64,000 bases of DNA from Poritiphilus flavus (GCF_009901585.1 NZ_WXYO01000002.1:92769-156768); one strand, 5' to 3'. Positions 6,931-59,031 are shown, counted from the stretch's first letter. Notes: a model not told the origin generated them from the letters alone. Translations and numbers: made by a program.

Positions 6931-7166
6931 GAAAAAAGATAATGAAATTTCTACAGGGTAGCTACTGTATGCTAAGTTCGATGGTATTGATGGTTTGCAC
7001 TAACAGCTGTGTATCATGAAATGACACTTTTGTCTCCTCTTGAAAAGTTTGAATCAAATCTACCAGAATCTGCAACCTGACTGTCAATCCACATTGATCC
7101 CCAGAGATACCTTTGACTTCATTGAATCAGCACAATCAATTTAGAGTTTAACTAAAAGCATAAACA

Positions 7167-12506: not shown

Positions 12507-12661
12507 AGATAAGAAGTTTCCTATTTAAAGATAGGACTTTAAAAACTTATCTTAATTCACTTTAACAATCCTTAAAGGAATTTCAGATTCCCCTTAGCAG
12601 TGCATGAGCACTATCGGCATCTAAAGAGGAGTATTAACGAGCAGAGAACAGCTACTACAGC

Positions 12662-13086: not shown

Positions 13087-13668
13087 TTAAGTCGCTTCTT
13101 TTTTTCTTTTGAAACTGCTCAAGAACTCCGGGGTGATACCCAGATAAGAAGCCAGATCCTTTTGTGTTATCTTCTCGCTTATCAAAGGATATTTCTCAAC
13201 AAATCTGGTATATCTTTCTGCTCCGCTAAAGGTAATATTATCCAGGGCCCTTAGTTGTTCCCGGCAGTAAGCGTTTTGCATCAGGATTCTAAAGAACCTC
13301 TCAAATTTTGGAATTTCAATAAAAAGGTTTTGCAGCCTATTGTAGTCAAGGGACCAAAGCCTGCTATCTTCCAGGGCCTCGATATTCAGCAAGGCAGGTT
13401 TCTGGTTTATAAAACAGTACATATCGGTAATCCACCAATCTGCAATACCGAACATAATGGTAGATTCCTTACCCTCCTGGGTAGGATAAAAGGCCCTTAA
13501 ACTTCCGGATCGAATGAAATAAATATTCCGACAGCTATTCCCCTGTTCCAGCAGCATTTCTTTTTTGGCTATGGACCTTTCTCTAAGCTGACTGGTGAAA
13601 TACCTCTTTTCCGCTTCATTTAGCGCAATGTGTTTTTTGATATTTTTTAATATAAGTTCAAAGTCCAT
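13087..13668 (-). CDS. Crp/Fnr-family transcriptional regulator
   Basis: cNMP-binding beta-barrel plus C-terminal HTH 'QKDLASYLGITPEFLSSFKR'. Confidence 0.8.
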   Translation of the reverse strand: MDFELILKNIKKHIALNEAEKRYFTSQLRERSIAKKEMLLEQGNSCRNIYFIRSGSLRAFYPTQEGKESTIMFGIADWWITDMYCFINQKPALLNIEALEDSRLWSLDYNRLQNLFIEIPKFERFFRILMQNAYCREQLRALDNITFSGAERYTRFVEKYPLISEKITQKDLASYLGITPEFLSSFKRKKEAT

Positions 13669-13789
13669 CCTCTACCATGAAAATATCTAAGGTAATCATT
13701 TAGGTAGGAAAAGTACCTATTGTCCAAAGTCTACCGGGAATGTTTTGATTATTACCCAAAAGGATTTATTGCGATTGTTTGCTGTTAGC

Positions 13790-13846
13790 TTATTGCAGTC
13801 AAAACGGTTAATTTTAGGTTGGGGAGGGGATTGGGAAATCCCCCGG
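13790..13846. repeat. Dispersed copy of the ~62-bp double-hairpin module (family described in findings)
   Basis: ttgcagtcaaaacggttaattttaggttggggaggggattgggaaatccccc aligns to the 3' end of the 175-bp unit. Confidence 0.6.
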
Positions 13847-13993
13847 CTTTTGACCAATTAAATTCAGGTCTGTCCTTGAGACCTTGCCTCAACCTATTTG
13901 TCTCTCCTCTTTACACGGATTATAAGATATAGGGATTATATGAGAAGTATTGAATGGGTAGGATGATATTGGAATTCCATCTAACTTTAGGGC

Positions 13994-14800
13994 ATGATTC
14001 CACAACACATTGCTGAAAGAAAAGGGGCAAGAAGCCTGAAAGATCTGAGTCCGGAAGTGATTGAATATCTTAACGCCGGAAAAATAGAGACTAAAAACCT
14101 TATAGAATGGTTGGCAACAGACCAACTTGTTTTGCTAAGAACGGTTTTGGAGTCTGCCAAAAAGTTGGACTGGCACGATTCTTTCGCAGCGGCTGTCAAC
14201 GCTCAAAAAAAGCCTACCGCTAATAGCAACACCAAAATAATAGGTGAGACCTTCATTCAGCTTACCGACTCCAATTTTGTTAAAATGAATTTGTCAAATC
14301 ATCCAAGCGATATTGTTCGTTGCTGGAGCTGCTGGGCGGAAAGCTTATTTCAGAATTCAATAGAGAATTTGTTGAAAGCGATGAAACCTTACGCCGCCGA
14401 TGCCCATTTTGGAGTACGTGAAGTAGTTATTTTTGCTTCCAAAGAACGTCTAATCGTAGATTTAGACAAGGCCATGGCTATCTTATCGGGATGGATTTCT
14501 GACGAAGATGAAAATGTTCGGCGCTATGCCGTTGAAGCCTTACGCCCGGTGGGAGTATGGACCAAAAAGATCCTTGAATTTCAGGAAAATCCCGAAAAAG
14601 GGTTACACATTCTGGAACCCTTAAGATCGGATTCCTCCAAATATGTTCGGGATTCTGTGGGGAATTGGCTAAACGACGCCAGTAAATCAAAACCGGATTG
14701 GGTCCAGGCCGTATGCAGTAGATGGAAAGCAGAATCGGCTACTAAGGAAACGGCATATATTCTCAAAAGAGGGTTGCGGACAATTGAAAAAAATAAGTAG
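13994..14800 (+). CDS. DNA alkylation repair enzyme-like HEAT-repeat protein (AlkD-like)
   Basis: HEAT-like repeats 'NVRRYAVEALRP', 'KYVRDSVGNWLND'. Confidence 0.45.
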   Translation: MIPQHIAERKGARSLKDLSPEVIEYLNAGKIETKNLIEWLATDQLVLLRTVLESAKKLDWHDSFAAAVNAQKKPTANSNTKIIGETFIQLTDSNFVKMNLSNHPSDIVRCWSCWAESLFQNSIENLLKAMKPYAADAHFGVREVVIFASKERLIVDLDKAMAILSGWISDEDENVRRYAVEALRPVGVWTKKILEFQENPEKGLHILEPLRSDSSKYVRDSVGNWLNDASKSKPDWVQAVCSRWKAESATKETAYILKRGLRTIEKNK

Positions 14801-14829
14801 GCAAGAGGGATTGTTTAAGCCCTTACATG

Positions 14830-14883
14830 CTCTTTGCAGAGAATAGCGCTAAATTTTGAATGGGGAAGGATTCAGGAATCCCA
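14830..14883. repeat. Dispersed copy of the ~62-bp double-hairpin module
   Basis: tctttgcagagaatagcgctaaattttgaatggggaaggattcaggaatccc. Confidence 0.55.
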
Positions 14884-15270
14884 CTCATAACAGCATTTGT
14901 TATTAAGGCAGATTTTCTAATTCAGCTGGTCAATGAGCGAATATTTAGATAGTTTTTTTCACGAATTCCCGAATGATGTTTCCTTCATAAATAACTCTGG
15001 TTCAGCGGCATAAGAGTTTACACATATTTTTGCTACAACGGTTTTTAAACTTGAGGAAAGCTTCAAAAAAGCAAAAACTATCCTCATGAAATACGGGTAA
15101 CATGAGAAGTTGGTCTAAAAAGTTGTCCTAAATCCCCTGCTGAGATCGTCAATTTTATGAGATGAAATATTGACTGGCCAAGGGGTTGGTCCATAAAGCA
15201 GCCCCATTAAAGAAAATCTGAGTGGGCATAAATTCATTTATAGATTAACAGATATAAAATAACTAAACCA

Positions 15271-15750
15271 ATGAAAACCATTGTCACCCTTTTACTGATG
15301 GCCGTTGTGGGCATTCAAATCTGCAATTCACAAAGTTTTTTTGAAAAAGTCTCAAATCTAAAATGGAAAGGTGAGGGAGAACTTATGGGAAGTAAGGCAT
15401 CCTTTAAAATGGACTGGAAGCCTATTCTGGACGGTAAATTCTACCAACTAACATTTCAAAATCAACGCGAAGAATCCAAAGAATATGTTTTCAAGGCCAG
15501 GGGCATTTATCGAGTAGGGGAAAGCAATAATGTTAGCGGTAGCTGGTTCGATTCAAGAGGATATTCATTTCCTCTTAAAGGTGAAGTTTCAGAAGACGCA
15601 CTTATGGTGATCTGGGGTTCACCGGAACTTGAGCAAGGAAAAACCATTTACACGATTAAAGACGGTTCCACCATTTTTGTGGAGGACTATGTTTTAAAAG
15701 ATGGGGAATTCATAAAATTTGGAAACGCCGAGTACAAACCAAACAATTAG
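15271..15750 (+). CDS. Hypothetical secreted protein
   Basis: Signal peptide. No recognised domain. Confidence 0.4.
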   Translation: MKTIVTLLLMAVVGIQICNSQSFFEKVSNLKWKGEGELMGSKASFKMDWKPILDGKFYQLTFQNQREESKEYVFKARGIYRVGESNNVSGSWFDSRGYSFPLKGEVSEDALMVIWGSPELEQGKTIYTIKDGSTIFVEDYVLKDGEFIKFGNAEYKPNN

Positions 15751-15777
15751 GTTCAGGCATCGCAATGGGGAAGTGGT

Positions 15778-15840
15778 ATACTGCTGGCTTTTTACAGTGA
15801 GAAGCCTTAAATTAAAGCGGGGAGGGGAGTAGAACTCCCC
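15778..15840. repeat. Dispersed copy of the ~62-bp double-hairpin module
   Basis: actgctggctttttacagtgagaagccttaaattaaagcggggaggggagtagaactcccc, near-identical to the unit's 3' end. Confidence 0.75.
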
Positions 15841-15945
15841 AAACTATGTAGGCAAAAACAGTTTTGATGGTCTAACTAAGCCAAGCCCTGCTCAGCAGAC
15901 GAAGAATTACCTTTTCACCATAGGATCAATCCACCAAAAACCTAT

Positions 15946-16881
15946 CTATTCATCCCCGGTCTTTGGCGTTGGTGGCATGCTATGGTTTATCATCTGACGA
16001 TAGATCTCTACTTTCCCGTCATCTCTCCTCCTGTATAGAGATAAACCCTTACCTCTTATGAAATTAGGCTTGTCTTCATAGGTCCACGCTACATAGTATT
16101 CCCCAAATTTTAAAGCATAATCGCCAAGTTCTACGACTTTGATTGCCCATGTCGCCAAAGAATCCCTTGTAACTAAAGGGTTGTAATGAGCATGGAAATA
16201 GTCGGAGATCCTATCTTTTCCAATAAAAGGTGGATCGTAATAGGTCATGTAAATGGCGTCTTCTGAATAAGATTTCAGTTGCTTCGCCGCATCTCCTGTT
16301 AAAACAGCCTGATATACGTATTTTCGAACATTTTCAATATCCCTTTCCCATTGCGTTTTGGGTATTAAACGATCCGTATCTAAGGTTGCTATCTCAACAA
16401 ATTGCAGATTTTCGGCTTCAAAATAATGCGAAGCGCCCCAAATATGGGCTACTATTTTTGGGGTTTTATCATCAATAAGCTTCCAATAAGTAAGGTATTT
16501 TCCATTATAATCGAAAATGACGTTGTTAGGTGTTCTATACTTATGCTCAAAAGTGCCCAATTCTATATACAAATGCCCTATTCGTTGCACTTCAAAGGCG
16601 TCTTTCGTATAAGAAATGGTTGCGGATTGTTTAAAGAAATCATCATAGTAGCTTGAAATGCGAGGAAGTCCGCTTAATGTCTTATGATATTCAGGCAGGA
16701 TAAAGCTTTCATTATCGAAAACCTCATCAAGTAAGTCCAAATTCTCTCCCTCAATGGCTGCTGCGAGGGTCTGACTTTGATTTTTAATCAGTACCTCATC
16801 AGTTTTTTTAGTTTGTAAAGCAAATGCCTCAGCAACAAAGAACAAAGTCAGTACACTCTTAATAATATGCTTCATTTTCAT
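15946..16881 (-). CDS. Secreted protein with two NTF2-like (SnoaL/DUF4440-type) domains; paralog A
   Basis: Signal peptide. Clear paralogy to the next gene (EYxKTL.G….YY..F..…; GK..IYRxxxN). Confidence 0.45.
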   Translation of the reverse strand: MKMKHIIKSVLTLFFVAEAFALQTKKTDEVLIKNQSQTLAAAIEGENLDLLDEVFDNESFILPEYHKTLSGLPRISSYYDDFFKQSATISYTKDAFEVQRIGHLYIELGTFEHKYRTPNNVIFDYNGKYLTYWKLIDDKTPKIVAHIWGASHYFEAENLQFVEIATLDTDRLIPKTQWERDIENVRKYVYQAVLTGDAAKQLKSYSEDAIYMTYYDPPFIGKDRISDYFHAHYNPLVTRDSLATWAIKVVELGDYALKFGEYYVAWTYEDKPNFIRGKGLSLYRRRDDGKVEIYRQMINHSMPPTPKTGDE

Positions 16882-16884
16882 TGA

Positions 16885-18276
16885 TTATCTTTCTATTTGG
16901 TTATGCAATCCAATATGCCGGTAAATCTTAAGGGAGTTGTCTGGCTGTCGCTTCCAAAGTCGGATTCCCTTGCCTTCATTGGTGCCCGAATTTTCTTTGA
17001 AGCGCCAATCCACTTCAAATAGGGAATACTCCAATATGTGATCTTCCAAATAAACATATTCGTAAGGCAGGACCTTAATATGGTCAATTTCTACGTCCCC
17101 TTTGTGGTAATCCTTTAAGTATGGTTTCAGAACCTCAAGGCCTACTTTGGCTTTATCAGCAAAAGGGTAGAATATGGCATCTTCAGCATACAGATCAATT
17201 CGCATTTGAGCATCCCAATTTTTAATTGCTTTTTCCCCATAGGCGGCATAAGCTCTTAGCTCAAGATTGCCGTTATTCGCAGGAACAATACCTTTGTCTA
17301 CTACCACATATTCCTCCTGTGTTAATTCCCGGTGGTATCCCTGGGCATAAGCATAAAGCTTATAACCCCCTGTGGTTTCCTTCCAGATGCACCAAAACTT
17401 TCCATTTTGTTGAAAAGGCTCTTTTAGCCGGGGACTTTTGATCTTTTGGGAGAATAAACCTATCTCTATCTTGTAGCCCGGTAGCTCAATGACCTCTTCT
17501 ATCAAGGGGTTTAACGCCACAATCTTATATTCATCAAACACTTTTTCGTAGTAAGCCAATATCTGCTCATGCCCCTTCAGTGTCTTTTGATATTCCAGCA
17601 TAAATATCCCATTAGGATGGATGTAGTTTCTTAAATCGTCTTCATTTTGGTTTTTAAGGGCATCAAAAAAAACCTTGCGTTCCCTGTCCGTATTGAACCC
17701 TTGCCTTATTCTGTTGAAAGTACCTTCATAAAAAAGCCCGGTAGGTCTGTGGTTATTATCATATTGTATTGACCGCATATTATAGCTGTCTTTTGAGATC
17801 CAGCTGTAATGGTATATGCGATACGTATTGTTGGGTTCACCCTCGAACCGTATCTTAAGGGACAAATCCCCTTTTTCATCAAAAGTTCCCTGACCCACTC
17901 CCGCTCTTATGGTTCCAAAACTGGACAAATGAGAGACCTCCTTTGTATTGGGGTTGTACGACCAAAATATATGACCGTTTGGTTCCGGTCCATCAATGAT
18001 CGATAGTAAACTGTTTTGCGTGTTCAGCTGCCTGGAAACAGTATGGTGGTTAGCTATTCTGATGGTATCTGTCTTATCTCCCCAATTTTGAATCCACCTA
18101 TCGTCTTTTAGCGTCCACTCTCCCATAAATCTTGTGAAAGGGTTTTTAGAGATTTCTATGGAATCCATGAGTTGCTCGTGGGAAGGCTTTCCATTTAGTT
18201 CAAATTCTATAGCCGTTCTTTGCGCCAAAGCAACACCAAAGGACCAAAAACAAAAGATGAGTGTTAATGTCTTCAT
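16885..18276 (-). CDS. Secreted NTF2-like-domain protein; paralog B. Start taken at 'MKTLTLIF'
   Basis: Paralogous blocks shared with 15946..16881. Confidence 0.45.
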   Translation of the reverse strand: MKTLTLIFCFWSFGVALAQRTAIEFELNGKPSHEQLMDSIEISKNPFTRFMGEWTLKDDRWIQNWGDKTDTIRIANHHTVSRQLNTQNSLLSIIDGPEPNGHIFWSYNPNTKEVSHLSSFGTIRAGVGQGTFDEKGDLSLKIRFEGEPNNTYRIYHYSWISKDSYNMRSIQYDNNHRPTGLFYEGTFNRIRQGFNTDRERKVFFDALKNQNEDDLRNYIHPNGIFMLEYQKTLKGHEQILAYYEKVFDEYKIVALNPLIEEVIELPGYKIEIGLFSQKIKSPRLKEPFQQNGKFWCIWKETTGGYKLYAYAQGYHRELTQEEYVVVDKGIVPANNGNLELRAYAAYGEKAIKNWDAQMRIDLYAEDAIFYPFADKAKVGLEVLKPYLKDYHKGDVEIDHIKVLPYEYVYLEDHILEYSLFEVDWRFKENSGTNEGKGIRLWKRQPDNSLKIYRHIGLHNQIER

Positions 18277-18755
18277 TCTTGATAGGGTTGAATGATTTCG
18301 TGAATAGTGGCCCAACCTGTCGGACTTTCGTCTGAACGCTCAAGTATCAATAACGTCCGTCCCCTGAAAACGAAGGGTTCATCCCCGTTTTTTGGAATTA
18401 GTCTTAAGGCAAAAAGCATCTGTTTAATTACCAGGTCGTTTTTATAGATGAATTTTTCCGTGACTTTTTCATCCAGGAATTCCAGATCAAAGCTTTCCAT
18501 AGTAGACTTTAAGCCGCTTAATACTTCTTCCCGACCTATTTGCAGATTGTTATACGCCAAAGCCTTGGTCACCTCAGGATGGTGGTATAATTTGATGGTC
18601 TCTAAATCTGCATTTTTAAATGCTTCCCTTACCGCCATCCCGGTCTCCGTAATTTGTCTTGAAACCTCTTCTTCTGTTGGCTTGTTGCTGGAACAACAGT
18701 AGAGTAAAAGTGTCAAGGGAATCGTTAAGATTGTTACATTCCGCCAGTATAATTT
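18273..18755 (-). CDS. Small secreted/lipoprotein NTF2-like (DUF4440-like) protein; paralog C. Start taken at 'MKLYWRN'
   Basis: Lipobox 'LYCCSS'. '…FVFRGRTLLILERSDESPTGWATIHE'. Confidence 0.45.
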   Translation of the reverse strand, partial: KLYWRNVTILTIPLTLLLYCCSSNKPTEEEVSRQITETGMAVREAFKNADLETIKLYHHPEVTKALAYNNLQIGREEVLSGLKSTMESFDLEFLDEKVTEKFIYKNDLVIKQMLFALRLIPKNGDEPFVFRGRTLLILERSDESPTGWATIHEIIQPYQE

Positions 18756-18966
18756 CATAGGCTTTTGTTTATTTTGACCAAAGGAAATGAAGTTCCGGGC
18801 CATGCGGAAATGTTATTGCCAAATGGAGCTGCCTGGTTGACAAGTTGAATGGTTTTCCGGATATCAGACAAAAAAAGCGGGTTTAAGATCTCGTATTGTA
18901 TTTCGTCATTTATTCGGTACACCTTGTCAATTCGATAGGCCCCAACTGTCAGGTCTCACCCGTTTT

Positions 18967-20112
18967 TTGACTAATTTTGTTCGAATGGTTCTCTCTAAAA
19001 CATTGAAATCCATAATCGCATTTATTAGCAGGTACAAATTGTATCATCTGGCATTTTGGTCTTTGTACCACTACTTCTGGTGGGCACTCATGAGTGGTAG
19101 CGCGGTTGAGGCGGTGCAGAATATCTTCTTTTCAGCATATTCTACAAAGTTTATTTTCTATGTGGTAATGCAGGCATTAGGGGTTTATTTTAATCTGTAT
19201 TTCTTAATCCCGCGGTTTTTACAGAAAGGGAACTATTTGGTTTACATCCCGATGTTATTACTGACAGTGCTTACTACTTCAGCCGGGATTATTGGGGGTT
19301 ATTATGTCAATGCTGCCGTGGTGGGCCTCCCTTTTGAAGAGCTTTTTAAGATAGCACCTACAGAGTTCTTTACTTTATTCAAAAGCAACGCGCTACCATC
19401 AACCCTGGCAAGTATGACCCTGGCCATGAGTATTAAACTGACCAAGAACTGGATGGCCTCTGAAAAGCGCAGAAATACCATTGAAAAGGAAAAACTGCAA
19501 ACCGAACTTAAATTTTTGCGTTCCCAGTTCAATCCTCATTTCTTGTTCAATACCATTAATTCCATTTTTGTGCTGATACATAAGGACCAGGATAAAGCCT
19601 CAAACTCTTTGGCAAAATTCTCTGAATTGCTTCGATATCAATTGTATCAATGCAACGAACCTTTTATTCCTCTGGAACAGGAATTGGATTATCTAGTCAA
19701 TTTTATTGAACTGGAAAAGCTAAGGCAAGAGTCGGAGCTTTTGGAATTAAATGTTGATCTGGACAAAACAACTTCCCTCACTTTGGAAATCGCCCCTTTT
19801 CTAATGATACCTTTTGTGGAAAACGCTTTTAAGCATGTTTCGTATCATAAAAACGCTAAAAATTGGATTGATATCCAGTTACGACTAGAACAAAGCAACT
19901 TACAGCTAATGGTCTCTAATAGTAGGAATCCCCTTGTAGTTGAAAAGGAAAATGGAGTTAATGGGATAGGTTTGGCCAATGTAAAGCGCAGGCTGGAGTT
20001 ACTGTATCCGAACGCCCATAAGCTGGAGATCATTAAGGATAATCTGCAACACGCCATAAAACTAGATCTTAAACTACAACAGCTTGAAGTTGTAAAATCT
20101 CAAATAGCCTGA
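18967..20112 (+). CDS. LytS-type sensor histidine kinase (His_kinase PF06580 + HATPase_c) with membrane N-terminus
   Basis: 'FLRSQFNPHFLFNTINSI' is diagnostic of LytS/YehU-family kinases. Confidence 0.8.
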   Translation: MTNFVRMVLSKTLKSIIAFISRYKLYHLAFWSLYHYFWWALMSGSAVEAVQNIFFSAYSTKFIFYVVMQALGVYFNLYFLIPRFLQKGNYLVYIPMLLLTVLTTSAGIIGGYYVNAAVVGLPFEELFKIAPTEFFTLFKSNALPSTLASMTLAMSIKLTKNWMASEKRRNTIEKEKLQTELKFLRSQFNPHFLFNTINSIFVLIHKDQDKASNSLAKFSELLRYQLYQCNEPFIPLEQELDYLVNFIELEKLRQESELLELNVDLDKTTSLTLEIAPFLMIPFVENAFKHVSYHKNAKNWIDIQLRLEQSNLQLMVSNSRNPLVVEKENGVNGIGLANVKRRLELLYPNAHKLEIIKDNLQHAIKLDLKLQQLEVVKSQIA

Positions 20113-20116
20113 CAGA

Positions 20117-20839
20117 ATGATACGATGTGCTGTAATAGATGATGAACCCCTGGCTCGGGAATGTTTGGTGAATTACATCCAAAAAATTGATTTTTTGGAT
20201 TTGGTAGGTGAAGGGCCAGACCCTACTGCCTTGTTGAATATTGCAAATAGGCAAACGCTGGACCTTGTATTCCTCGATATACAAATGCCGATCATGACCG
20301 GAATTGAGTATTTAAAGTCAACCAAAGTGAGGCCAATGGTAATCCTGACCACTGCGTATCCCAGCTATGCACTTCAAGGATTTGAATTGGACGTCCTGGA
20401 TTATATGGTCAAGCCCATAACCATGGAACGATTCCTAAAAGGTGCCAACAAGGCGAAGGACTATCTTTTGCTTGCTAAGGGTGACAATAATGCCAATAAG
20501 AGCGGCGCTCCTCCGGAATATTTTTTTGTGAAGTGCGAAAGTGTATATGAAAAGATATTCTTTGATGAAGTGGAATATGTGCAGGCACTGCAAAATTATG
20601 TGGTCATATACACTTCAGGCAGCAAGTACGTAACGCTTATGTCTATGAAGCGCATAGAGTCGCTTTTAGGAGCTTCGCAATTTATTAGGGTCCACAAGTC
20701 CTATCTGGTTGCATTGGACAAAATACAAAGTGTAGAGAATACGCGATTGCATTTAACTTCAGCGACCATTCCCCTAAGTCGAAATTATAAGATTAATGTC
20801 TTTGAACACGTTCTGAACAAATCGTTTTTAAAGAAGTAG
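20117..20839 (+). CDS. LytR/AlgR-family response regulator (REC + LytTR DNA-binding domain)
   Basis: REC 'CAVIDDEPLA…LVFLDIQMP', C-terminal LytTR. Confidence 0.85.
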   Translation: MIRCAVIDDEPLARECLVNYIQKIDFLDLVGEGPDPTALLNIANRQTLDLVFLDIQMPIMTGIEYLKSTKVRPMVILTTAYPSYALQGFELDVLDYMVKPITMERFLKGANKAKDYLLLAKGDNNANKSGAPPEYFFVKCESVYEKIFFDEVEYVQALQNYVVIYTSGSKYVTLMSMKRIESLLGASQFIRVHKSYLVALDKIQSVENTRLHLTSATIPLSRNYKINVFEHVLNKSFLKK

Positions 20840-21020
20840 ATCTCTTACACCTGGGATGAATTCCAGGTGAAACAAATGCTGTATTCATGTATAAATTTTG
20901 TGGTTGATCTGATCTTTACCTGATTGTCCGCTATAAGACCAGTTTCTATTGGCTCATCTAAACCGGTTTACCTTTGGCCAATTCTTGGGCTGAATACCTA
21001 AAGCAGTTTACTAGCACTAA

Positions 21021-21083
21021 AACTGTTGGTTTTTTACAGAGAGGAGGCCTAAATTGATATTGAGGAGGGGATTGGTAATCCCC
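21021..21083. repeat. Dispersed copy of the ~62-bp double-hairpin module
   Basis: actgttggttttttacagagaggaggcctaaattgatattgaggaggggattggtaatcccc. Confidence 0.7.
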
Positions 21084-21512
21084 ATTTTAAAAGCAAAACC
21101 AGAACTTGGCCAATTACTTCACTTTGTTGGCATCCAAGGTATTTTTGTATTTCTGGGACCGTACCGACTCCGTGTGGTTAAACACCTTTTTTCAGGACTA
21201 TTGACAGACCTTAACGATCTGGATAATCTCAGATGGACTTATTATTTGGGCTCCATATCCGGCACTATTATAGGATTCCTTTTGCATAGATTTAAATACT
21301 TCTGGAAGATCCAATCCATGGGCATAAGCGGGTAATTTTGTCAGAAATTATTAGTGTAACAGGTTGATGACTTTGCATGCATGAATCAGGAATGTGTCGC
21401 TTTCAGCATTTGAACTGCCACAATCGCATAGGCGGTATTGCAGGATCTGCCAAAGGAATTGTACAACTGTTTCTGCCTCATGAAAATCACCTTAAATAAA
21501 AGAATATTTGCA

Positions 21513-22475
21513 ATGAAAAATGAAAACACTCCTCAAGATCTACCATGGTGTGAATATCCAAAGGCTTCTGAATTGGAACGACATGGTTTGATGAAGTTGC
21601 CGAACAAACTAAGGACCATCTGCTGGAGCAAAGTGAAAAAGTATCGAACCAATACCTATGCCATAAAAATGTTGGGTTGTCTAAATGATCCCCAAATATT
21701 GGAAATGGCCAGAATGGTAGCTGATTCTTTTGGAAAGAACGAACCTATGAATCGGCATATCAATATGCCAAAACAAATACCGGATGAACTTAAAAACTAT
21801 CTTCACAGAGACCCATTTGGCAGCGCATTTTTTGGAGAGTGGTCCTCGGAAAATTTGATGTATTGGTTCATACGAATGTTTATACTTACCGATCCGGCAG
21901 ATCCGATTGACAAGGTAGAGATTAACAGGGACCTAAAGAAAATGTCGCTTACCATGCTTGGTCCTGATTCCAAAATTTTGGGCGGAGCATATAATATTAC
22001 AGTATGCGAAGAGGAAGACGGTTTCAGGGAGTTTGATCCAATTCTCAGAGCTGTATTTACGGTAGATAAACCTATTTTCGATTTTATATTTTCTCAAGAG
22101 CATCTGGCTATTCAGCTGCTAAAAAGTAAGTATTTTGAATTTAAGAAGGCATTAGAGAATGGAGAGGTAGCATCTCATTTTATGGTTGCAAAGTGTCCGC
22201 AATTACCTAAAAAGCATGCCTTCGAGTTAGTGGCTGCTTCTGCAGAAGTATTAAAAGTTCAGGGATTCAAATATATAATGGTTTGCGCTACAAATCAATG
22301 GACCGGTGCGGCTTGCGAGGCACTAAACGGAACAAGAGTACATTTTGCTCCTTTTAGGACAGAAAGACTAATTGCAGATGCTTTTAGCGCTTCTGAATCA
22401 GAGCCCTATAGCAGTGATGGCTTTATATCAGATAAAGATAGCGGAGCAATGCTTTATGTATTGAACCTTAACTAA
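21513..22475 (+). CDS. Hypothetical cytoplasmic protein. Start taken at 'MKNENT'
   Basis: Long ORF with no confident domain. C-terminal half is weakly GNAT-like. Confidence 0.45.
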   Translation: MKNENTPQDLPWCEYPKASELERHGLMKLPNKLRTICWSKVKKYRTNTYAIKMLGCLNDPQILEMARMVADSFGKNEPMNRHINMPKQIPDELKNYLHRDPFGSAFFGEWSSENLMYWFIRMFILTDPADPIDKVEINRDLKKMSLTMLGPDSKILGGAYNITVCEEEDGFREFDPILRAVFTVDKPIFDFIFSQEHLAIQLLKSKYFEFKKALENGEVASHFMVAKCPQLPKKHAFELVAASAEVLKVQGFKYIMVCATNQWTGAACEALNGTRVHFAPFRTERLIADAFSASESEPYSSDGFISDKDSGAMLYVLNLN

Positions 22476-22593
22476 TTCTGTCTACTTAAAACTTTAGGAT
22501 ATCAATAACAAGTAAGAATCTATCATTTGATAATTTTGCAAGCGTTGTACTTATTATACTTCAGAAAACTGCAGCATTAATTTCCTTTGAAAA

Positions 22594-23541
22594 ATGGACC
22601 AGTCAACGATGTTGAATTCTAGCAAATACGAGAGATTTATCCTATTATTCGCGATTTACATTTTAAGCCATGCTTGTAGCAAGGATAACACGCCCGCGCA
22701 GATAAGTGACCCCGACCCAATTGATCCCGACTTGGAATTGGTACAGCTACCTATAGTGGTTCATGTAATTCACAATGGAGAGGAAATTGGGGCCGGGCCT
22801 AATCTTTCAACCGAACGCATCCTAAGGCAAATAGCAATTATAAATGAGGACTTTCGTCGTAAAGAAGGTACCAAAGGGTACAATGAGCATCCGGATGGTG
22901 CGGACTCAAGGGTGGAATTTGTGCTTGCCAAAAAAAATCCGGATTCGGAGTCTTTTAATGGAATTAATAGGATAGATGCTTCTACAATAGATGTAGAAGA
23001 TCTGGGTTATAGTCCCAATCATTATTCGCAATACGCGTATTGGGATCCCAACCAATATATAAACGTTTGGACTACCCCTTTACCGGCCGAAACATCCTGT
23101 GTGGTCCTTGGATTGGCTACCGGGCCACTTACCGATCTTCCGGGGACTGAATTACTTGCCATTCCGCAGGAAGGAGATGCAGAAGGCATTTTAATCAACT
23201 GGTCACATTTTGGTGAATCAGTAATAAATTGTCATGCGCGATACGGGCGAACCCTAACCCATGAGATGGGCCACTATTTGGGACTCTTACATCCCTGGGG
23301 TGGAAACGACTGTGAATCCAATGACTTCTGTGATGATACCCCTCCAGTGGACAAAGCGGTTTTTGGACGAACTGCCTTTGAGGGCTGTTCGGGAGAATCT
23401 ATTATGATAGCTAACTATATGAACTATAGCGATGATGAGGTAATGAATATTTTTACGAAGGATCAGGTTGATAGAATTCGTTACGTCCTCAAAAACCACC
23501 CCGGCAGGAACAATTTGATAACTAGTCCGGCGCTGCAGTAA
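22594..23541 (+). CDS. Zinc metalloprotease, metzincin M43 (cytophagalysin/pappalysin-like) lipoprotein
   Basis: 'HEMGHYLGLLHPWGG' = HExxHxxGxxH. Lipobox 'SHACS'. Confidence 0.75.
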   Translation: MDQSTMLNSSKYERFILLFAIYILSHACSKDNTPAQISDPDPIDPDLELVQLPIVVHVIHNGEEIGAGPNLSTERILRQIAIINEDFRRKEGTKGYNEHPDGADSRVEFVLAKKNPDSESFNGINRIDASTIDVEDLGYSPNHYSQYAYWDPNQYINVWTTPLPAETSCVVLGLATGPLTDLPGTELLAIPQEGDAEGILINWSHFGESVINCHARYGRTLTHEMGHYLGLLHPWGGNDCESNDFCDDTPPVDKAVFGRTAFEGCSGESIMIANYMNYSDDEVMNIFTKDQVDRIRYVLKNHPGRNNLITSPALQ

Positions 23542-23542
23542 A

Positions 23543-24019
23543 ATGAAACCTGAGAACTTAATTATTCTGACTTGCCCGGATTGGGAAAGCGTACCAATTT
23601 CACTTTTGTTGTTAGCAGATCCTGATGAGAAAAGGCTTGAAGCCTATATAAAAACGGGAAGTTGTTATATTGCCAAAATAGAGGACACCATAATTGGAGT
23701 ATTGGTGTTAAAAGAAATCAATCCAACTACTCTGGAAATTAAGAACATTGCCATAGATGAACCTTTTCAGGGCTACGGCTTTGGTAGTCATCTACTGAAT
23801 TTTGCATCGGAAGTTGCCAGAGATCAGGGGTATAAGTCGCTGATAATCGCAACGGGGAATTCCAGCATAGGACAGCTAAAACTATATCAGCGAATCGGTT
23901 TTGAAATATTTGATATCGAGATGAACTACTTTACTCTCGAATACCAAGCGCCGATTTATGAAAACGGAATTCAGTGCAAGCACAAGATTTTTCTACGGAA
24001 AGATTTGAACAACAACTAA
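23543..24019 (+). CDS. GNAT-family N-acetyltransferase
   Basis: 'IAIDEPFQGYGFGSHLL' acetyl-CoA-binding motif. Confidence 0.75.
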   Translation: MKPENLIILTCPDWESVPISLLLLADPDEKRLEAYIKTGSCYIAKIEDTIIGVLVLKEINPTTLEIKNIAIDEPFQGYGFGSHLLNFASEVARDQGYKSLIIATGNSSIGQLKLYQRIGFEIFDIEMNYFTLEYQAPIYENGIQCKHKIFLRKDLNNN

Positions 24020-24048
24020 AGTAAGCTCCTATACGATCTGCCCCCTTA

Positions 24049-25254
24049 TCATTTTTTTGACTGCAGTCTTTTTCTGAATTCCGTCGGGTTCATATTGAAT
24101 TTACGTTTGAAAGCAATTGAAAAATTATTAGAATGCTTGTAGCCTACTTTTTCGGCAATAGAGGCGATAGACTCCTCAGGGTCTGTTAATAGGCGGGAGG
24201 CATTGGAAAGTCTTATATCAGTCAGAAAATGAATAACCGGCGTCTCAAAAAGCTCTGAGAAAGCGGTTTTGATCTTGTACTGGTTTATTCCAAAAGACCT
24301 TGCTAAAGAGCTGATAGTTATCTCTTCAGGATAATTGGTTTCAAGGAAATCACGAATCTGGTATATCTTAAAGAGATCTTCTACGCGTAATTCCTCTAAC
24401 TTTGAATTTACTGTGGCTCTTTCACCGGTTACAAACGTTTGTATGGCCAGTAACTCTTTTTTATACTCGCCAAACCAAACAAGGTGATCATTCCCGCTGC
24501 TTAGTATTAATTGAGAGTTCGGAATTTTATCATGTATATATTGGCTATGTTGAGATTCTATTAATCTATCCCCTTCTCTATGGATAATTAAAGTAGGAGC
24601 TTGAACCTTTCTTAATATAGAAGTCACATCTATTTCAATGTTCATCTCATACAACTTTCTGGCAGTGGTTGGGCTTGCACTGCGGCGCAGAAATTGAGAC
24701 CATTGTTTTTGAACACCTTTCTTGTGTTGTACACTTGGAGCGAAGTATTTAAGCCCTACAGGTTCTCCCCAATGCTCAAATATATAATCTATAGATTTTA
24801 AATGTTGCCTCTTTGTTAAGCCGTATGGATAGCTATCGGACTTTAACCACTTTGCAAAGCTACCAATTAAGATGAGTTTGGAGACCATACCAGGGTGTTG
24901 CACAGCAAAGCGTAACGCCAGGGCACCTCCTTCGGAAAGGCCTATAAAATTTGCCTTTTTGACACCTATCTGCGACAAAATAATTTCAAGATCGTTTGCA
25001 CGTTCTTGAATGCCAGGGGGTTCATTCTCATTAATGTTATCAGACAGGCCCGTTCCTCTTTTATCAAAAATGACCAGTTTAGAAAAGGATGCAATATACC
25101 TTAACCATGCTGCTGCCTCAGGAATATCCCAAACCGCTTCAATGTTAGAAATCCATCCGGGGATCAATATCAAAAAATCACCTTTGTCGCCAATAATTTG
25201 ATATGCGAGATTACCCTCTTTTGATCGGGCATATAAAGTGTTGGGAATATTCAT
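24049..25254 (-). CDS. Alpha/beta-hydrolase fused to a C-terminal AraC-type HTH. Start taken at 'MNIPNT'
   Basis: 'GLSEGG' nucleophile elbow with HGW box upstream. AraC HTH 'SSLARSFGINQYKIKTAFSELF…FRKR' at the C-terminus. Confidence 0.7.
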   Translation of the reverse strand: MNIPNTLYARSKEGNLAYQIIGDKGDFLILIPGWISNIEAVWDIPEAAAWLRYIASFSKLVIFDKRGTGLSDNINENEPPGIQERANDLEIILSQIGVKKANFIGLSEGGALALRFAVQHPGMVSKLILIGSFAKWLKSDSYPYGLTKRQHLKSIDYIFEHWGEPVGLKYFAPSVQHKKGVQKQWSQFLRRSASPTTARKLYEMNIEIDVTSILRKVQAPTLIIHREGDRLIESQHSQYIHDKIPNSQLILSSGNDHLVWFGEYKKELLAIQTFVTGERATVNSKLEELRVEDLFKIYQIRDFLETNYPEEITISSLARSFGINQYKIKTAFSELFETPVIHFLTDIRLSNASRLLTDPEESIASIAEKVGYKHSNNFSIAFKRKFNMNPTEFRKRLQSKK

Positions 25255-25355
25255 TAATGGCAAGTTAAAGAAAGACAACCTTCTTTGCGCATAGATTAAA
25301 ATACTTTTAAGATATCCTGTCTCCATGCTTATGCCGGTACATTTGGGCAAAAAAC

Positions 25356-25988
25356 ATGTGCTCAAATAACAATTTCTCATTGAGACTTATCAATTCAAGA
25401 ATATTCCGTGCATTAAACGGATATATGCATTATAAATACAAGAATAGAAAAACAGCGCTTTTTTCGGATCTGCCGGAACGCTTACTTGAAATTGGCCCTG
25501 GTGCAGGGGCTAACATGCGCTACTATAAACCGGGCACTGAGGTAATAGCTGTTGAACCGAACCCACATATGCATAGATCATTAATTGATCAATCTGAAAG
25601 ATACGGACTGCAACTTCGAATCGTCAAGGGTTCTGCTGAGGTTCTAAACCTTATGGACAATAGCATTGACGCTGTTGTCAGCACCTTAACACTGTGCACT
25701 ATACCAGACGAAAGGCAGGCGCTTTCCGAGATTAAACGTGTATTGAAACCTGGAGGTAAGTTCTACTTTTTAGAGCACGTTGCAGCCAATAAAGGATCCC
25801 TGTTAAGAAGAATTCAAATAGTGATCCACCGTCCCTGGAAGTGGTTTTTTGATGGCTGCCATACACATAAGAACTTAAGGAGACGGATTTGCGAGACTGG
25901 CTTTTCAAATGTTCAAATAGAAAATTTTAAGCTTTATTCTCCCTTTATTCCAATCACTCCACAGATTTCTGGTATTGCACGCAAATAG
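25356..25988 (+). CDS. Class I SAM-dependent methyltransferase
   Basis: Motif I 'LEIGPGAGAN', post-I 'VIAVEPN', 'LKPGGKFYFLEH'. Confidence 0.7.
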   Translation: MCSNNNFSLRLINSRIFRALNGYMHYKYKNRKTALFSDLPERLLEIGPGAGANMRYYKPGTEVIAVEPNPHMHRSLIDQSERYGLQLRIVKGSAEVLNLMDNSIDAVVSTLTLCTIPDERQALSEIKRVLKPGGKFYFLEHVAANKGSLLRRIQIVIHRPWKWFFDGCHTHKNLRRRICETGFSNVQIENFKLYSPFIPITPQISGIARK

Positions 25989-26036
25989 ATCTGAGGAAAC
26001 AAACTGGTATGATATCGCAATTCAAAAATTCACATA

Positions 26037-26636
26037 ATGTATTATATAAAAACTATAATCTTCCTGATGCTAAGCTTATTTTGGTATAGTTCTTTCGCTC
26101 AAAGAAACAATTGCTCCATAATAGATCAAGAAGAATGTTTCATCTACCCGGACCAGTTCAAGCCCGGCTTCGGGGAAGCTCCCGAGAGCCTAATTAAAGC
26201 AGACCGTAAATGGTCAGTATTGTCCAACCGTATTTCATTTATCAGTCAAAATGGAGTCAAACTCAATTATTTAGAAATTGAAGATAAAATGATTGCACCG
26301 GAAATCTTGTTATTATATAAGAATCATGGAGGTGGTCTGTCATTTAAGCAAGTTGTAAGTGAAATGCAGAGACTGAACAAAGAAACCAAAATAATAGCTG
26401 TAAATCTTGATGAAACCAATTCAAAGGAATCTCAGATTGAAGCTAAAACCCAAGTAAGTACAGCATCAACAATCGAGTTGGTCAAGGCAATTGTTGAGTT
26501 AATCTTACATAAAAACATTGTGAACTGCCTTATAGTGCCCTATGCTGATGCCAAAGTGGTTGCTGCTGAAATTGAGCGTCGGCGCAAGACAGGTGGGAAA
26601 GAATGGTTTATGAATACCGATTCTTACCTTCACTAG
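26037..26636 (+). CDS. Hypothetical secreted protein
   Basis: Signal peptide. No domain recognised. Confidence 0.4.
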   Translation: MYYIKTIIFLMLSLFWYSSFAQRNNCSIIDQEECFIYPDQFKPGFGEAPESLIKADRKWSVLSNRISFISQNGVKLNYLEIEDKMIAPEILLLYKNHGGGLSFKQVVSEMQRLNKETKIIAVNLDETNSKESQIEAKTQVSTASTIELVKAIVELILHKNIVNCLIVPYADAKVVAAEIERRRKTGGKEWFMNTDSYLH

Positions 26637-26700
26637 GCCAACTTAAGCTATGTGATCTAAAAGTTAATCGAAACCAAGATTTAAATGCATAAAACCAAAA

Positions 26701-26724
26701 CCCTGTATGAGAATACAGGGTTTA
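26701..26724 (+). terminator. Possible terminator hairpin
   Basis: ccctgtatgagaatacaggg then ttta. Weak T-tract. Confidence 0.35.
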
Positions 26725-26726
26725 CG

Positions 26727-27127
26727 CTTTAAGTGACCTCCACAGGCTTGCCTGCCATAGCCTTAGCGACGACAGGATTGTTACCTTACCCTTCAAACCC
26801 AATTGCTATTGCAATGGGAAAGCTGTAAACTGCTGATTTTTTGCAGTGAGAAGCTTTAAATTATGTTTAGGGAGGGGAGTAGAACTCCCCGATTTTCTGC
26901 TTTAAGTGACCTCCACAGGCTTGCCTGCCATAGCCTTGGCGACGGCAGGATTGTTACCTTACCCTTCAAACCCAATTGCTATTGCAATGGGAAAGCTGTA
27001 AACTGCTGGTTTTTTGCAGTGAGAAGCTTTAAATTATGTTTAGGGAGGGGAGTAGAACTCCCCAATTTTTCTGCTTGATGTGACCTCCACAGGCTTGCCT
27101 GCCATAGCCTTGGCGACGGCAGGATTA
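26727..27127. repeat. Tandem array of ~2.3 copies of a 175-bp hairpin-rich unit, each beginning with a copy of the tRNA-Arg 3' end
   Basis: Copies start at 26733, 26906 and 27080 (gtgacctccacagg). Units are >95% identical. Confidence 0.9.
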
Positions 27128-27547
27128 CTCGCCGAACCTACCTTGAGTGGTGGTCGAAAGGCTCGTGATCCTTTGAACCCACTCTTGTAAATGCAATCAG
27201 CGGCCATATTTACAAAACCTTGGTTTGAGAATATCATTACTGGGACATTAGGGTATTAGGGATTGCAAACGACCGAACTAGCTGATCTGCGTCTTTAATG
27301 CGGCACAGTGTGAGTGGGTCCTTTCCCTGCTGGTATATCTTGGTCGATCTTGGTTGGATGCCCATTTTCTCTACACCTGTGAAGGCAAACAAGAACAGTC
27401 CAATCATCTGCATCTACGAAAATGTCAAATCTATCCCGACCTTATTTACTTTTGCATTCCAGCGGCTTGATACCATTTTGAATTGGCCTCGACGTCTTCC
27501 ACAGCAATGATTGGATAGGTTTTGGTCATACTAAATTGTTTTATGAT

Positions 27548-27988
27548 TTAGTCGGTAATCAGCTGTTCTATTTTAATAAAGCCAGCTCTTGCCGCATCTG
27601 CGTGTACTTGCATTGCTTTTTCGTCGTAAAGATTTTCGTGCGTGTATGTTAGTTCAGTTTTTCCATTGACTTCCTTAAACTCGACCGTTAGGATTGTCTC
27701 GTTCGCCCAGTTTTCGATCTTCTCATTCTTGGCCCATTGGAACGTCCCAACGAGTTTATATGGTGGATCAACCTCGGTATACATTCCTGAGAGTGGATAC
27801 TTGATTCCATCATCACCGAGCATCGTGAGTCGATAGGTGCCACCTTTAGAAACATTCAATTCATGAATTTCTGCACCGTCTTTGCTGGATCCAAACCATT
27901 TTGCCATTTTTGCTGGATCGGTCCAGGTTGCATAAACCTTTTCTGGTGATGCATTAAATGTGTGTTTTAAAATAAGTGTTGTATTCAT
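27548..27988 (-). CDS. SRPBCC-superfamily protein (Aha1/activator-of-Hsp90-ATPase-like domain)
   Basis: 'EKVYATWTDPAKMAKWFG…' AHSA1 pattern. 146 aa. Confidence 0.65.
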   Translation of the reverse strand: MNTTLILKHTFNASPEKVYATWTDPAKMAKWFGSSKDGAEIHELNVSKGGTYRLTMLGDDGIKYPLSGMYTEVDPPYKLVGTFQWAKNEKIENWANETILTVEFKEVNGKTELTYTHENLYDEKAMQVHADAARAGFIKIEQLITD

Positions 27989-28794
27989 ATTCCATGTATT
28001 AGTTTTGAAACATCAGGTTCAAGTGTCGGCACCTAGAAACTACACTCACATCCCTTTTAGCTTTAGTAAAACAGACCGGATTCAAAACATTTAAGAAATA
28101 AATATTTGCCTTAATATTGCTTTCTCCAGCTCATTCGAAGAGAAAAACAGAGGTGTGGTCTTGCCAAAGATCTAGTGCATAATGTGTATCTGACATATAT
28201 TCCGGATACTCATTGGATGGCTCATATAACCAAGTTATGAGATCAATTCCATCATAATAGAATCAAATAATTCACTCATTGCCTGGCCGAAGGAACTCTT
28301 AATATCGAGATGAAAATTTCGTCAAATGAAACTTAACCTCCGTATTGATTTTTCTGCCGGTCCCTGCCGTCCGCTTTGAGCCGAAAACAGACTATAAATC
28401 TTAATTTAAAAAAACAATGACATTAGTCACGTAAACGGCCATTTTACAAGACATGAATTCAAAAACAAACTTTCTTTTGTATAGGTTTCCTAGCTCTGGT
28501 CTTTTTTAGTGATTTTGTTAATTAACCTTTTATCGCAGACTCTACTTGCATTTGTAATTCGGTTAACGCTGTTGACTAATAAAAAGTGACCCTGCCTATG
28601 CCGGCAGGCTCTACAGATTTCCTTACTTTGTTCGGTTTTCCTTCGAACTCCTTCCTAAAAATAAAATCCCTGCTTGGAATTTGGAGTTTGTGATTTGAAT
28701 TTCAAGGATTATATGCGGTGATCCTAAATAAGTTCCGTAGTCTAAATGCAAAGCTGCAAATCGCGGATTTACCTGCTTTCAGGGAGCTTTTCAT

Positions 28795-28996
28795 TCTTAA
28801 GTGACCTCCACAGGCTTGCCTGCCATAGCCTTGGCGACGGCAGGATTGTTACTTTACCCTTCAAACCCAATTGCTATTGCAATGGGAAAGCTGTAAACTG
28901 CTGGTTTTTTGGAGTGAGAAGCTTTAAATTATATTTAGGGAGGGGAGTAAAACTCCCCGATTTTCTGCTTGATGTGACCTCCACAGAATTATTCCA
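28795..28996. repeat. Fourth copy of the 175-bp unit, flanked by tRNA 3'-end core copies at 28801 and 28984
   Basis: ~93% identical to the units at 26727-27075. Confidence 0.9.
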
Positions 28997-29143
28997 TGAT
29001 CCTGAATAAAATCGCTGCTGCAAATAGAAAGTCCAATTACTTGCGTAATTATTTTTCATTTTACTCCGAACCTCTGAAGCATAGCTCCAGGTTCTTCGTA
29101 AAACAAAAAATCCACCACGGTGGTGATGGACTTTCTGCTTGAT

Positions 29144-29160
29144 GTGACCTCCACAGGATT
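29144..29160. repeat. Sixth direct copy of the tRNA-Arg 3' end (gtgacctccacaggatt), 164 bp from the gene itself
   Basis: Exact 17-bp match to tRNA positions 29308-29324. Confidence 0.85.
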
Positions 29161-29242
29161 ACCTCTCTTCGTTTGGTTTTCCTTTGTGTTCCATGTTGAG
29201 AATCAAAAAATCAATGCTTCGCATTGCAAAATCCTCTCTTAC

Positions 29243-29277
29243 AAAACAAAAAAGCGAGCTTTATGTTTTGCTCGCTT
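29243..29277 (-). terminator. Rho-independent terminator downstream of tRNA-Arg
   Basis: Minus strand: agcgagc-aaaacataa-agctcgct followed by TTTTTTGTTTT. Confidence 0.7.
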
Positions 29278-29308
29278 CGGTTTGTTGAATCATTTTTTGA
29301 TTCATCTG

Positions 29309-29382
29309 TGACCTCCACAGGATTCAAACCTGTAACCTCTTGAGCCGTAATCAAGTGCTCTATTCAGTTGAGCTAGGAGGCC
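29309..29382 (-). tRNA. tRNA-Arg (anticodon ACG). CCA not encoded
   Basis: Manual cloverleaf: acceptor GGCCTCC/GGAGGTC, D-arm GCTC…GAGC, anticodon stem CTTGA/TCAAG with loop TTACGGC, T-arm ACAGG-TTTGAAT-CCTGT. Confidence 0.85.
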
Positions 29383-29834
29383 TTTGTTATTAATGTTCTT
29401 AACGTACCCTTTTATGCCTTTGCTAAGGGAGGGCAAATATATTTCTTTTTGTACTTAAGGCAAAATAACCACGCACCAAATATTGGTAGCCATGCCATAG
29501 CCGAAGTGAATGCCTCGAACTAATTTCCGAGGGATTTGGTCGTTACGTAATAGCGCCAGCCGATGATGGCCAACTGAAATTTTGAGGCCTTAGACAAATC
29601 CAAACCCCGCTTTGAATAGGAGGGCAAAAAGAGCCTGTTGGCCCTGGCTAAAAAAGTAAATAAAGCCTTTTTCATCGGTCTGCTTATGTGGTAAAGGTAA
29701 GCAATGTCCCGGAATAGGCATTTCCCTAACCAAAGCGATACCTTCCCTCAATGCTCTTGTACTCTGGCTAACCACCCATTTCAGATACGGCCAATTCGCC
29801 CTAGTTTAAGATCAAATTCAAAAGATATGTCATT

Positions 29835-49665: not shown

Positions 49666-49689
49666 AATACTTTTATTTTTTCCTGACAA

Positions 49690-53528: not shown

Positions 53529-53551
53529 ACTGAGAATAACGCCAGATTTCA

Positions 53552-59026: not shown

Positions 59027-59031
59027 ACGTT

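Follow-up and report, generated by a model that had tools for sequence, protein, structure and literature searches.

At the tyrT locus of Escherichia coli, Egan and Landy are said to have described, in 1978, repeats of 178 bp that each carry the 3′ end of tRNA-Tyr. Islands anchored at tRNA genes can hold stacked elements together with scattered partial tRNAs, as do the tycheposon islands of Prochlorococcus (bioRxiv 10.1101/2020.12.28.424599), and repetitive extragenic palindromic (REP) sequences are imperfect palindromes of 20-40 bp, tagged at one end by GTAG or CGTC (PMC3733652). Here we describe a hairpin-bearing intergenic repeat, which we call the module, in a stretch of 64,000 nucleotides from the genome of Poritiphilus flavus, a member of the Flavobacteriaceae (GCF_009901585.1 NZ_WXYO01000002.1:92769-156768; the window), where it recurs in an island beside a tRNA-Arg(ACG) gene. 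The island resembles those of the tycheposon type in that its variable region starts at the 3′ end of the tRNA and contains several scattered partial tRNA copies, in that cargo has been pushed away from the tRNA, and in that relatives differ at this place, some of them with integrase-type elements. Unlike those islands, it holds no integrase or remnant of one, its tRNA fragments are packed at a spacing of 164-174 bp, and the distal borders of its gene blocks bear the module, a non-tRNA repeat, instead of partial tRNAs. The best reading makes the module an att-like junction repeat in an island anchored at a tRNA, and neither a REP sequence nor a bacterial interspersed mosaic element (BIME) nor a miniature inverted-repeat transposable element (MITE). 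More specifically, and with confidence and doubt in about equal measure, we take it to be the junction repeat of gene blocks (‘cassettes’) in a variable, lower-GC island anchored at the 3′ end of tRNA-Arg(ACG), and probably the crossover site at which blocks are gained, lost or moved.

Copies were located by a blastn search of the window with the 173-bp tandem unit that ends in a module, and with a covariance model built from the seven copies in the window and scanned over the 64 kb on both strands with filters off. The scan returned these seven copies of about 71 nt at 48-96 bits, all on the + strand and spanning 13777-28964, and the runner-up scored 9 bits. The seven matches are the model’s own training sequences, and the informative part of the scan is the absence of additional copies. 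The family is therefore confined, within the window, to the DNA beside the tRNA, with all seven copies packed into 15.2 kb adjoining tRNA-Arg and none in the remaining 48.8 kb. The copies are:

13777..13849, + strand: module copy m0; covariance model 58 bits; 71% identical to the unit by blastn
14819..14889, + strand: module copy m1; covariance model 51 bits; 19 nt past the stop of the gene at 13994-14800
15759..15874, + strand: module copy m3′ with its left extension and tail of about 35 nt; 82 bits for 15776-15846
21019..21089, + strand: module copy m2; covariance model 81 bits; 180 nt past a LytTR gene (20117-20839)
26825-26896 and 26998-27069, + strand: module copies inside tandem units, from the covariance model
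28893-28964, + strand: module copy in the third full unit; covariance model 88 bits

In the blastn search, full-unit matches were obtained at 26726-26896, 26899-27071 and 28797-28964 and partial matches at 15759-15842 (83.5%, E 3e-18), 21020-21088 (77%, E 4e-9), 13782-13843 (71%, E 7e-5) and, marginally, 14833-14882 (68%, E 0.03); the pattern GGGAGGGGA-N7-TCCCC with ≤2 mismatches gave six matches against 0.62 expected by chance. The usual position of a copy is intergenic, at the 3′ end of a + strand gene, with copies 19-26 nt past the stops of 13994-14800 and 15271-15750; m0 lies within the divergent intergenic region 13669-13993, between a Crp-family gene and a DNA-alkylation-like gene. An earlier note on this DNA had proposed a dispersed repeat family in intergenic DNA, mostly 3′ of genes and tied to DNA mobility, and blastn and the covariance model bear out the family and its position, while the link to mobility is supported by the comparisons below. 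The four dispersed copies that it listed are real, and it missed the seventh copy, in the unit at 28797-28964. Two copies that it called near-identical, at 15776 and 21019, are in fact 83% and 72-77% identical, and the diverged copy that it suspected at 12570-12590 went undetected in the covariance-model scan.

The same note had favoured a REP/BIME-type repeat or a miniature mobile element, which would insert by itself genome-wide. Like REP and BIME sequences, the module is a short, GC-rich, hairpin-bearing intergenic repeat in several diverged copies, often past gene 3′ ends, and a loosely similar hairpin repeat occurs in one metagenome-assembled genome (MAG) of the Tannerellaceae. We nevertheless hold this to be the least probable of the readings considered here, and a very unlikely one. 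The copies lie on one strand and in one local cluster, and they show no inverted pairing, terminal inverted repeats or target-site duplications; their left ends fall at different points between unit positions 83 and 115, and about 70-110 nt of sequence are shared, as against a palindrome of 20-40 bp. No GTAG or CGTC end tag is present: GTAG stands in the loop of one subfamily only, with TTGG, GCGG or TCGG in its place elsewhere. No REP-associated transposase (RAYT) gene was seen in the window. A MITE would moreover be expected to leave empty sites in relatives, which instead carry the module at orthologous sites.

The core of the module is a hairpin, hairpin 2 (GGGGAGT-AGA-ACTCCCC and variants; 17 nt with a 7-bp stem), which is well supported and is maintained through compensatory changes. 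It is retained in every copy, though decayed in m1 (14862-14880). In an alignment of 10 copies, 91.7% of its cells are paired and two base pairs show compensatory change, one from G-C to U-A in four sequences and the other from U-A to C-G between the orthologous copies that follow the LytTR gene in P. flavus and in the sister contig L011. The covariation score was 0.182, against 0.098 for shuffled alignments (0/500 reach 0.182) and 0.01-0.11 for slid controls. The second hairpin of the ‘double hairpin’ described earlier is therefore solid, whereas hairpin 1 is weak, with a stem of 4 bp around a loop of 9 nt. About 45 nt before hairpin 2 are shared as well, and about 35 nt past it are shared among several copies. 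The subfamilies of the module are 55-72% identical to each other; the longest run common to them is about 11 nt, at the hairpin core (by eye, alignment A3), and no long stretch other than GGGAGGGGA plus the GC hairpin of 6-7 bp after it is common to all (by eye).

Such a hairpin past a stop codon could also be nothing but a Rho-independent terminator or 3′-protective structure, repeated through convergent or conserved function. In the three full-unit copies, hairpin 2 with its T-tract gives the top three terminator-like sites on the + strand between 12.5 and 30 kb; the stem is preserved by compensatory changes, and every copy is co-oriented with upstream + strand genes. In the solo copies, however, the canonical T-tract is lacking: none follows the stem at 15840, past the 159-amino-acid (159-aa) gene (AAACTATG), in its L005 ortholog (AACCTGCA) or in the L011 copies (AACTACAT, TGATATAT), and one is partly present at 21083 (ATTTTAAAA). 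Copy m0 lies upstream of a gene and not at a 3′ end, the sequence shared on both sides of the hairpin exceeds what a terminator needs, folding z-scores are modest (−0.7 to −3), and the relation of one copy to two described below is left unexplained. We therefore judge a family of terminators alone to be improbable. The terminator role suggested in the earlier note is plausible for the three unit copies only. Scans with Rfam 15 returned nothing besides tRNA at the gathering threshold, and permissive scans of 13700-15900 and 26650-29400 gave chance-level matches only. Two further readings of the module sequence were set aside, namely a Bacteroidetes-type promoter (TTG ... TAnnTTTG), which fails on a spacing of about 13 nt and on boxes that vary among copies (by eye), and a dif/Xer-like reading of TTATGTTTA, in which the spacer is not conserved among copies.

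The position of the module in relatives was determined in three short sister-lineage contigs, two of which (L005 and L006) were chosen because the gene to the right of the tRNA has 90%-identical orthologs on them, while an 82%-identical LytTR ortholog led to L011. The results showed that module copies stand at orthologous junctions. In L011, one copy lies 19 nt past the ortholog of the DNA-alkylation-like gene (51 bits), the same place as P. flavus 14819, and another, at 6965-7035, lies 118 nt past the LytTR ortholog (64 bits), the same place as P. flavus 21019; both are independent of the training set of the covariance model. In L005, a copy lies 22 nt past the ortholog of the 159-aa gene (80 bits). 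All three relatives’ copies are co-oriented with the flanking + strand genes, and m0 is 72% identical to the L011 copy at 2622-2692. At the post-LytTR junction, L011 6911-7030 aligns to window 20965-21084, with the blastn alignment stopping at hairpin 2 and, by eye, a weak similarity of the tail that may run about 30 nt more; collinearity between L011 and P. flavus is also lost upstream of the DNA-alkylation-like gene.

Where P. flavus has two modules, L011 has one. Window 13994-14889 pairs with L011 1797-2691 at 74.6%, and window 15782-16792 with L011 2627-3638, so that the single L011 module equals the two P. flavus modules that bracket the following segment:

14890..15781, + strand: 892-bp segment with the 159-aa gene (15271-15750), flanked by two modules and missing from the L011 site

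Copy m1, with its decayed hairpin, forms the left direct repeat of this segment. The right direct repeat is m3′, which begins 9 nt past the stop of the 159-aa gene, groups with the unit copies in one subfamily (83.5% against unit positions 83-167) and aligns both to L005 4593-4700 and to L011 from 2627 onward. In L005, the 159-aa gene and its module lie beside tRNA-Arg, unlike the P. flavus site: the tRNA is only about 400 bp beyond the module, with two tRNA-fragment units between. Window 15105-15874 matches L005 3929-4700 and window 29212-31195 matches L005 4995-6959, and 13.3 kb in P. flavus thus stand against 295 bp in L005 at the corresponding place beside tRNA-Arg. L006 shows another neighbour again and lacks the module. 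Between P. flavus and the sister contigs, identity at four-fold degenerate sites is 74% in the 159-aa gene (47 sites) and 38-44% in four neighbouring genes. Because of this difference, the 159-aa gene segment with its module must have been exchanged recently, after the lineages split, and it now lies at different module-bearing sites in the two lineages. The gene itself (15271-15750 versus L005 4097-4579) is 85% identical in nucleotides and 78% in amino acids, values that, with the 74% at four-fold sites, mean roughly neutral or diversifying evolution. Together, the copies at orthologous junctions and the one-to-two relation argue for recombination at the module and not for transposition of the module.

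Toward the tRNA, the module becomes part of a larger repeat, the features of which are as follows:

29308..29382, − strand: tRNA-Arg(ACG) gene, the last 17 nt of which recur six more times downstream with 0-1 mismatch
26726..27126, + strand: 2.3 tandem 173-bp units (Tandem Repeats Finder, period 173, 96% matches)
28797..28964, + strand: third full 173-bp unit, 97% identical to the unit
28967..29307, + strand: two tRNA-fragment units without a module (fragments 28974-28990 and 29144-29160)

Each 173-bp unit starts with a tRNA-Arg 3′ fragment and a 28-nt hairpin insert; after a linker come a duplicate of the DNA past the stop of the 159-aa gene and, last, the module. In reverse complement, the opening bases (GTGACCTCCACAGG) give the 3′ end (last 17 nt) of tRNA-Arg(ACG), and the 28-nt hairpin (CTTGCCTGCC...GGCAGG) splits the tRNA fragment. 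With ≤1 mismatch, the 17-mer has seven occurrences against 0.11 expected, in clusters at 26733-27096 and 28801-29324 that are 1.7 kb apart and within which the spacing is 164-174 bp; in + coordinates, each of the three unit modules has the next tRNA-Arg 3′ end 17 nt downstream of it. With a tRNA 3′ fragment on the left and the 3′ flank of the 159-aa gene with its module on the right, each 173-bp unit amounts to a tRNA-fragment repeat joined to a module. As expected of att repeats derived from a tRNA, these units and the two neighbouring ones contain the 3′ end of the target tRNA. The two module-less units each bear a terminator-like hairpin on the − strand. The units recall the tyrT locus, which is reportedly similar in having tandem units of about 170-180 bp downstream of a tRNA gene, each with its last 17-19 nt or so; this likeness covers the 173-bp units only and leaves the solo modules at distant block borders unexplained.

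Two other hairpins were observed at the tRNA end of the island. Another family of hairpins, which reads CCTGCC...GGCAGG in P. flavus and L006 and CCTACC...GGTAGG in L005 (a compensatory change from G-C to A-T), occurs at 26750-26779, 26923-26952, 27097-27126, 28818-28847 and 28591-28608 and at L005 4893-4960 and L006 673-740, inside tRNA-Arg 3′ fragments at the position of the T-loop. A conserved hairpin AAACCCTG...CAGGGTTT (window 26698-26724, L005 4847-4875, L006 622-650) directly precedes the first tRNA-fragment unit in three lineages; in P. flavus it has an 11-bp stem and is terminator-like on the − strand.

The make-up of the units also bears on a simpler explanation, in which the module is a passive repeat: the 3′ flank (a terminator or stabilizing hairpin) of the 159-aa gene and similar genes would have been copied by local segmental or tandem duplication, and rearrangements would end at the copies through ordinary homology, with no dedicated recombinase and no function as a site. 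The right half of the unit does duplicate the sequence from the stop of the 159-aa gene onward, downstream module included, the units are in tandem with a period of 173, most copies lie 19-180 nt past + strand stop codons, and no recombinase gene lies in the window. We regard this as the strongest competitor, possible and yet clearly less probable than a junction repeat. Subfamilies that are 55-72% identical are too diverged for efficient RecA-mediated exchange, yet the 159-aa segment moved recently. In addition, the orthologous copies past the DNA-alkylation-like gene and past the LytTR gene are still detectable, with the hairpin kept by compensatory change, although blastn leaves the DNA adjacent to them unaligned and identity at synonymous sites is no more than 38-44%.

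In the reading that we favour, with the module as a junction repeat, each block ends in one module, all modules have the same orientation, and nearest the tRNA the module is fused to tRNA 3′-end fragments to give the 173-bp units. A block would leave as a circle bearing one module, a postulated intermediate, and would re-enter when this module crosses over with one already in place, in a Campbell-type insertion that leaves a module on either side of the cargo; the reverse reaction would delete the cargo and leave one module behind. The one-to-two relation between L011 and P. flavus is the expected product of such a crossover or of the reverse deletion. GGGAGGGGA with the GC hairpin core would be the likeliest recognition and crossover site for a recombinase encoded elsewhere, and the same hairpin may double as a 3′-end structure of the cassette transcript. 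Since the subfamilies, with a longest common run of about 11 nt, would make a poor substrate for RecA, we favour site-specific over homologous recombination, by a recombinase that acts in trans and recognizes the core. Given that the window encodes no recombinase, we infer both this mechanism and the identity of the enzyme.

Several observations weigh against this interpretation. Within the 64-kb window there is no gene for an integrase, transposase or other recombinase, nor does an integrase gene adjoin the tRNA-proximal end, as would be expected of a genomic island with tRNA-derived att repeats. Local alignment to the tRNA revealed no remnant of it beside any of the four solo modules (p > 0.15), so that these are not ordinary tRNA-derived att repeats. 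The census of copies covers the 64-kb window, and the P. flavus genome may hold further copies outside the island; the sister contigs are few, and L011, which overlaps L005 at 94% identity, does not belong to the same genome as L005. In L005, the left edge of the 159-aa gene segment is without a module, and a simple history of ‘one cassette, one circle’ therefore misfits some junctions. The crossover point within the module is weakly resolved: informative sites divide 7:5 left of hairpin 2 and 1:8 in the hairpin, which hints at a switch just 5′ of hairpin 2, and the decayed hairpin at 14862-14880 weakens this placement.

A bolder version of the junction repeat, which we think unlikely although somewhat less so than a mere terminator, would make the module the site of an undescribed cassette-shuffling system of the Flavobacteriaceae, attC-like in its working. 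The site would consist of the GGGAGGGGA box and a short GC hairpin followed by a tail of about 35 nt, the system would be anchored at the tRNA gene, its recombinase would be encoded elsewhere in the genome, and multi-gene blocks would be moved within and between lineages. As in integron attC arrays, an imperfectly conserved hairpin site of about 70-110 bp follows each block in one orientation, the position of a block differs between related genomes, and one site stands against two around an inserted block. Unlike attC, the module does not form an imperfect palindrome over its whole length and has a local 7-bp hairpin only, and it lacks RYYYAAC/GTTRRRY boxes at opposite ends (by eye, aligned copies); both of its ends carry (T)AAAC/CTAAC motifs that are direct and not inverted (by eye). 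The window contains no IntI, attI or Pc, and the P. flavus blocks, unlike integron cassettes, hold several genes on both strands.

From 10 to 30 kb, the window holds accessory genes of ordinary kinds. They include a Crp-family regulator (13087-13668, − strand), a HEAT/DNA-alkylation-like protein (13994-14800, + strand), the 159-aa protein, which is secreted (15271-15750), DUF4440 proteins, a LytTR two-component pair, an M43 peptidase, a GNAT protein, an AraC-hydrolase, a methyltransferase and an AHSA1 protein. GC content is about 0.40 left of tRNA-Arg and about 0.445 to its right, where the core genes for RF-1, pyrF, glutamine synthetases and ApbE are found. Differences in content between L005, L006 and Flagellimonas mark the tRNA-Arg site as a variable integration hotspot: in Flagellimonas genomes, the DNA 3′ of tRNA-Arg is taken up by an element of integrase/excisionase type (HTH_17) or by a YopA/HNH element, and one Flagellimonas relative has an integrase about 6 kb downstream of the same tRNA. 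An AbiEii-type toxin gene (3237-3875) with a possible antitoxin upstream (open reading frame (ORF) 2728-3240) was noted in a low-GC stretch at 2-4 kb, which suggests that the accessory region may reach far left of the module cluster. At the other end of the window, a conserved block of about 80 nt (TTATAAACGTTTACT...CCGATGAA.GTTTACG) recurs at 53069-53150, 53449-53530 and 58947-59028, with repetition also of 52613-52823 against 58481-58691; the copies adjoin large − strand ORFs (49690-52929 and 55780-58797), a SusD-like gene lies at 47941-49689, and the block may be a shared regulatory region of duplicated loci.

Beyond the sister lineages, the module was found in none of the settings searched. 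A more distant relative keeps the block from DUF4440 to LytTR with a module on neither side, which argues that modules were added in the Poritiphilus lineage and are not ancestral to the block; homologs of the LytTR block in L012 and L013 and distant homologs of the 159-aa gene in L007 and L008 likewise have no module. These distant 159-aa homologs occur in AraC/AHSA1 operons and, in one case (L008), in an island at tRNA-Asp that has a tyrosine integrase. A strict module pattern gave 0 matches in GTDB representative genomes and JGI metagenomes. With a looser pattern, there were 0 module matches in viral contigs, and in genome contigs only a hairpin repeat of the Tannerellaceae MAG and one palindrome of Pseudomonadota, which were rejected as relatives of the module since the search pattern by itself accounts for their scores of 18-33 bits. 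A pattern search and comparison with relatives, as proposed earlier, has thus yielded copies in the sister contigs L005 and L011 and none that is credible in the wider collections. The repeat in the Tannerellaceae MAG (MI.B10_13), GGGGATTACAAATCCCCTCCGTCCAAAATTTA, lies at L001 365-441, L003 898-975 and L004 2487-2565, set among other GGAT..ATCC hairpins in three contigs of this one MAG; it looks like a REP-like family in its own right, and its likeness to the module is largely imposed by the pattern.

The tRNA-derived part of the units was sought in the same way. The tRNA-fragment hairpin insert had 0 matches in viral contigs and the tRNA-fragment-plus-insert pattern had 0 matches in metagenomes, while the tRNA 3′ 17-mer had five matches in viral contigs, a number judged to be about chance level. 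A phage contig (L014; IMG/VR UViG_3300037485_000684) carries, at 3281-3304 in an intergenic gap, 23/24 nt of the tRNA-Arg 3′ end plus trailer, a match that could be an attP. In the 7.6 kb read of this contig there is no integrase and no module, and the 17-mer match was set aside.

For annotation, two results hold. The ORF at 21054-21335 starts (TTG) inside m2, so that a module copy supplies its N-terminus, as had been stated in the earlier note. It has no Pfam match, and its body has no counterpart in L011, where similarity fades within about 30 nt past hairpin 2 (21084); for these two reasons the ORF is doubtful and probably not a gene. The 173-bp units, for their part, are to be annotated as tRNA-fragment repeats. 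If the module were only a duplicated 3′ flank, the locus would be an ordinary rearrangement hotspot and the value of the finding would be limited to such annotation. If the module is the crossover site, this locus would be a compact example of a tRNA-anchored island built and reshuffled without a resident integrase, in which the borders of blocks can bear a non-tRNA repeat. It would then also provide a concrete sequence to seek in islands of other Flavobacteriaceae, and the 892-bp segment with the 159-aa gene would be a testable case for circles and empty sites.

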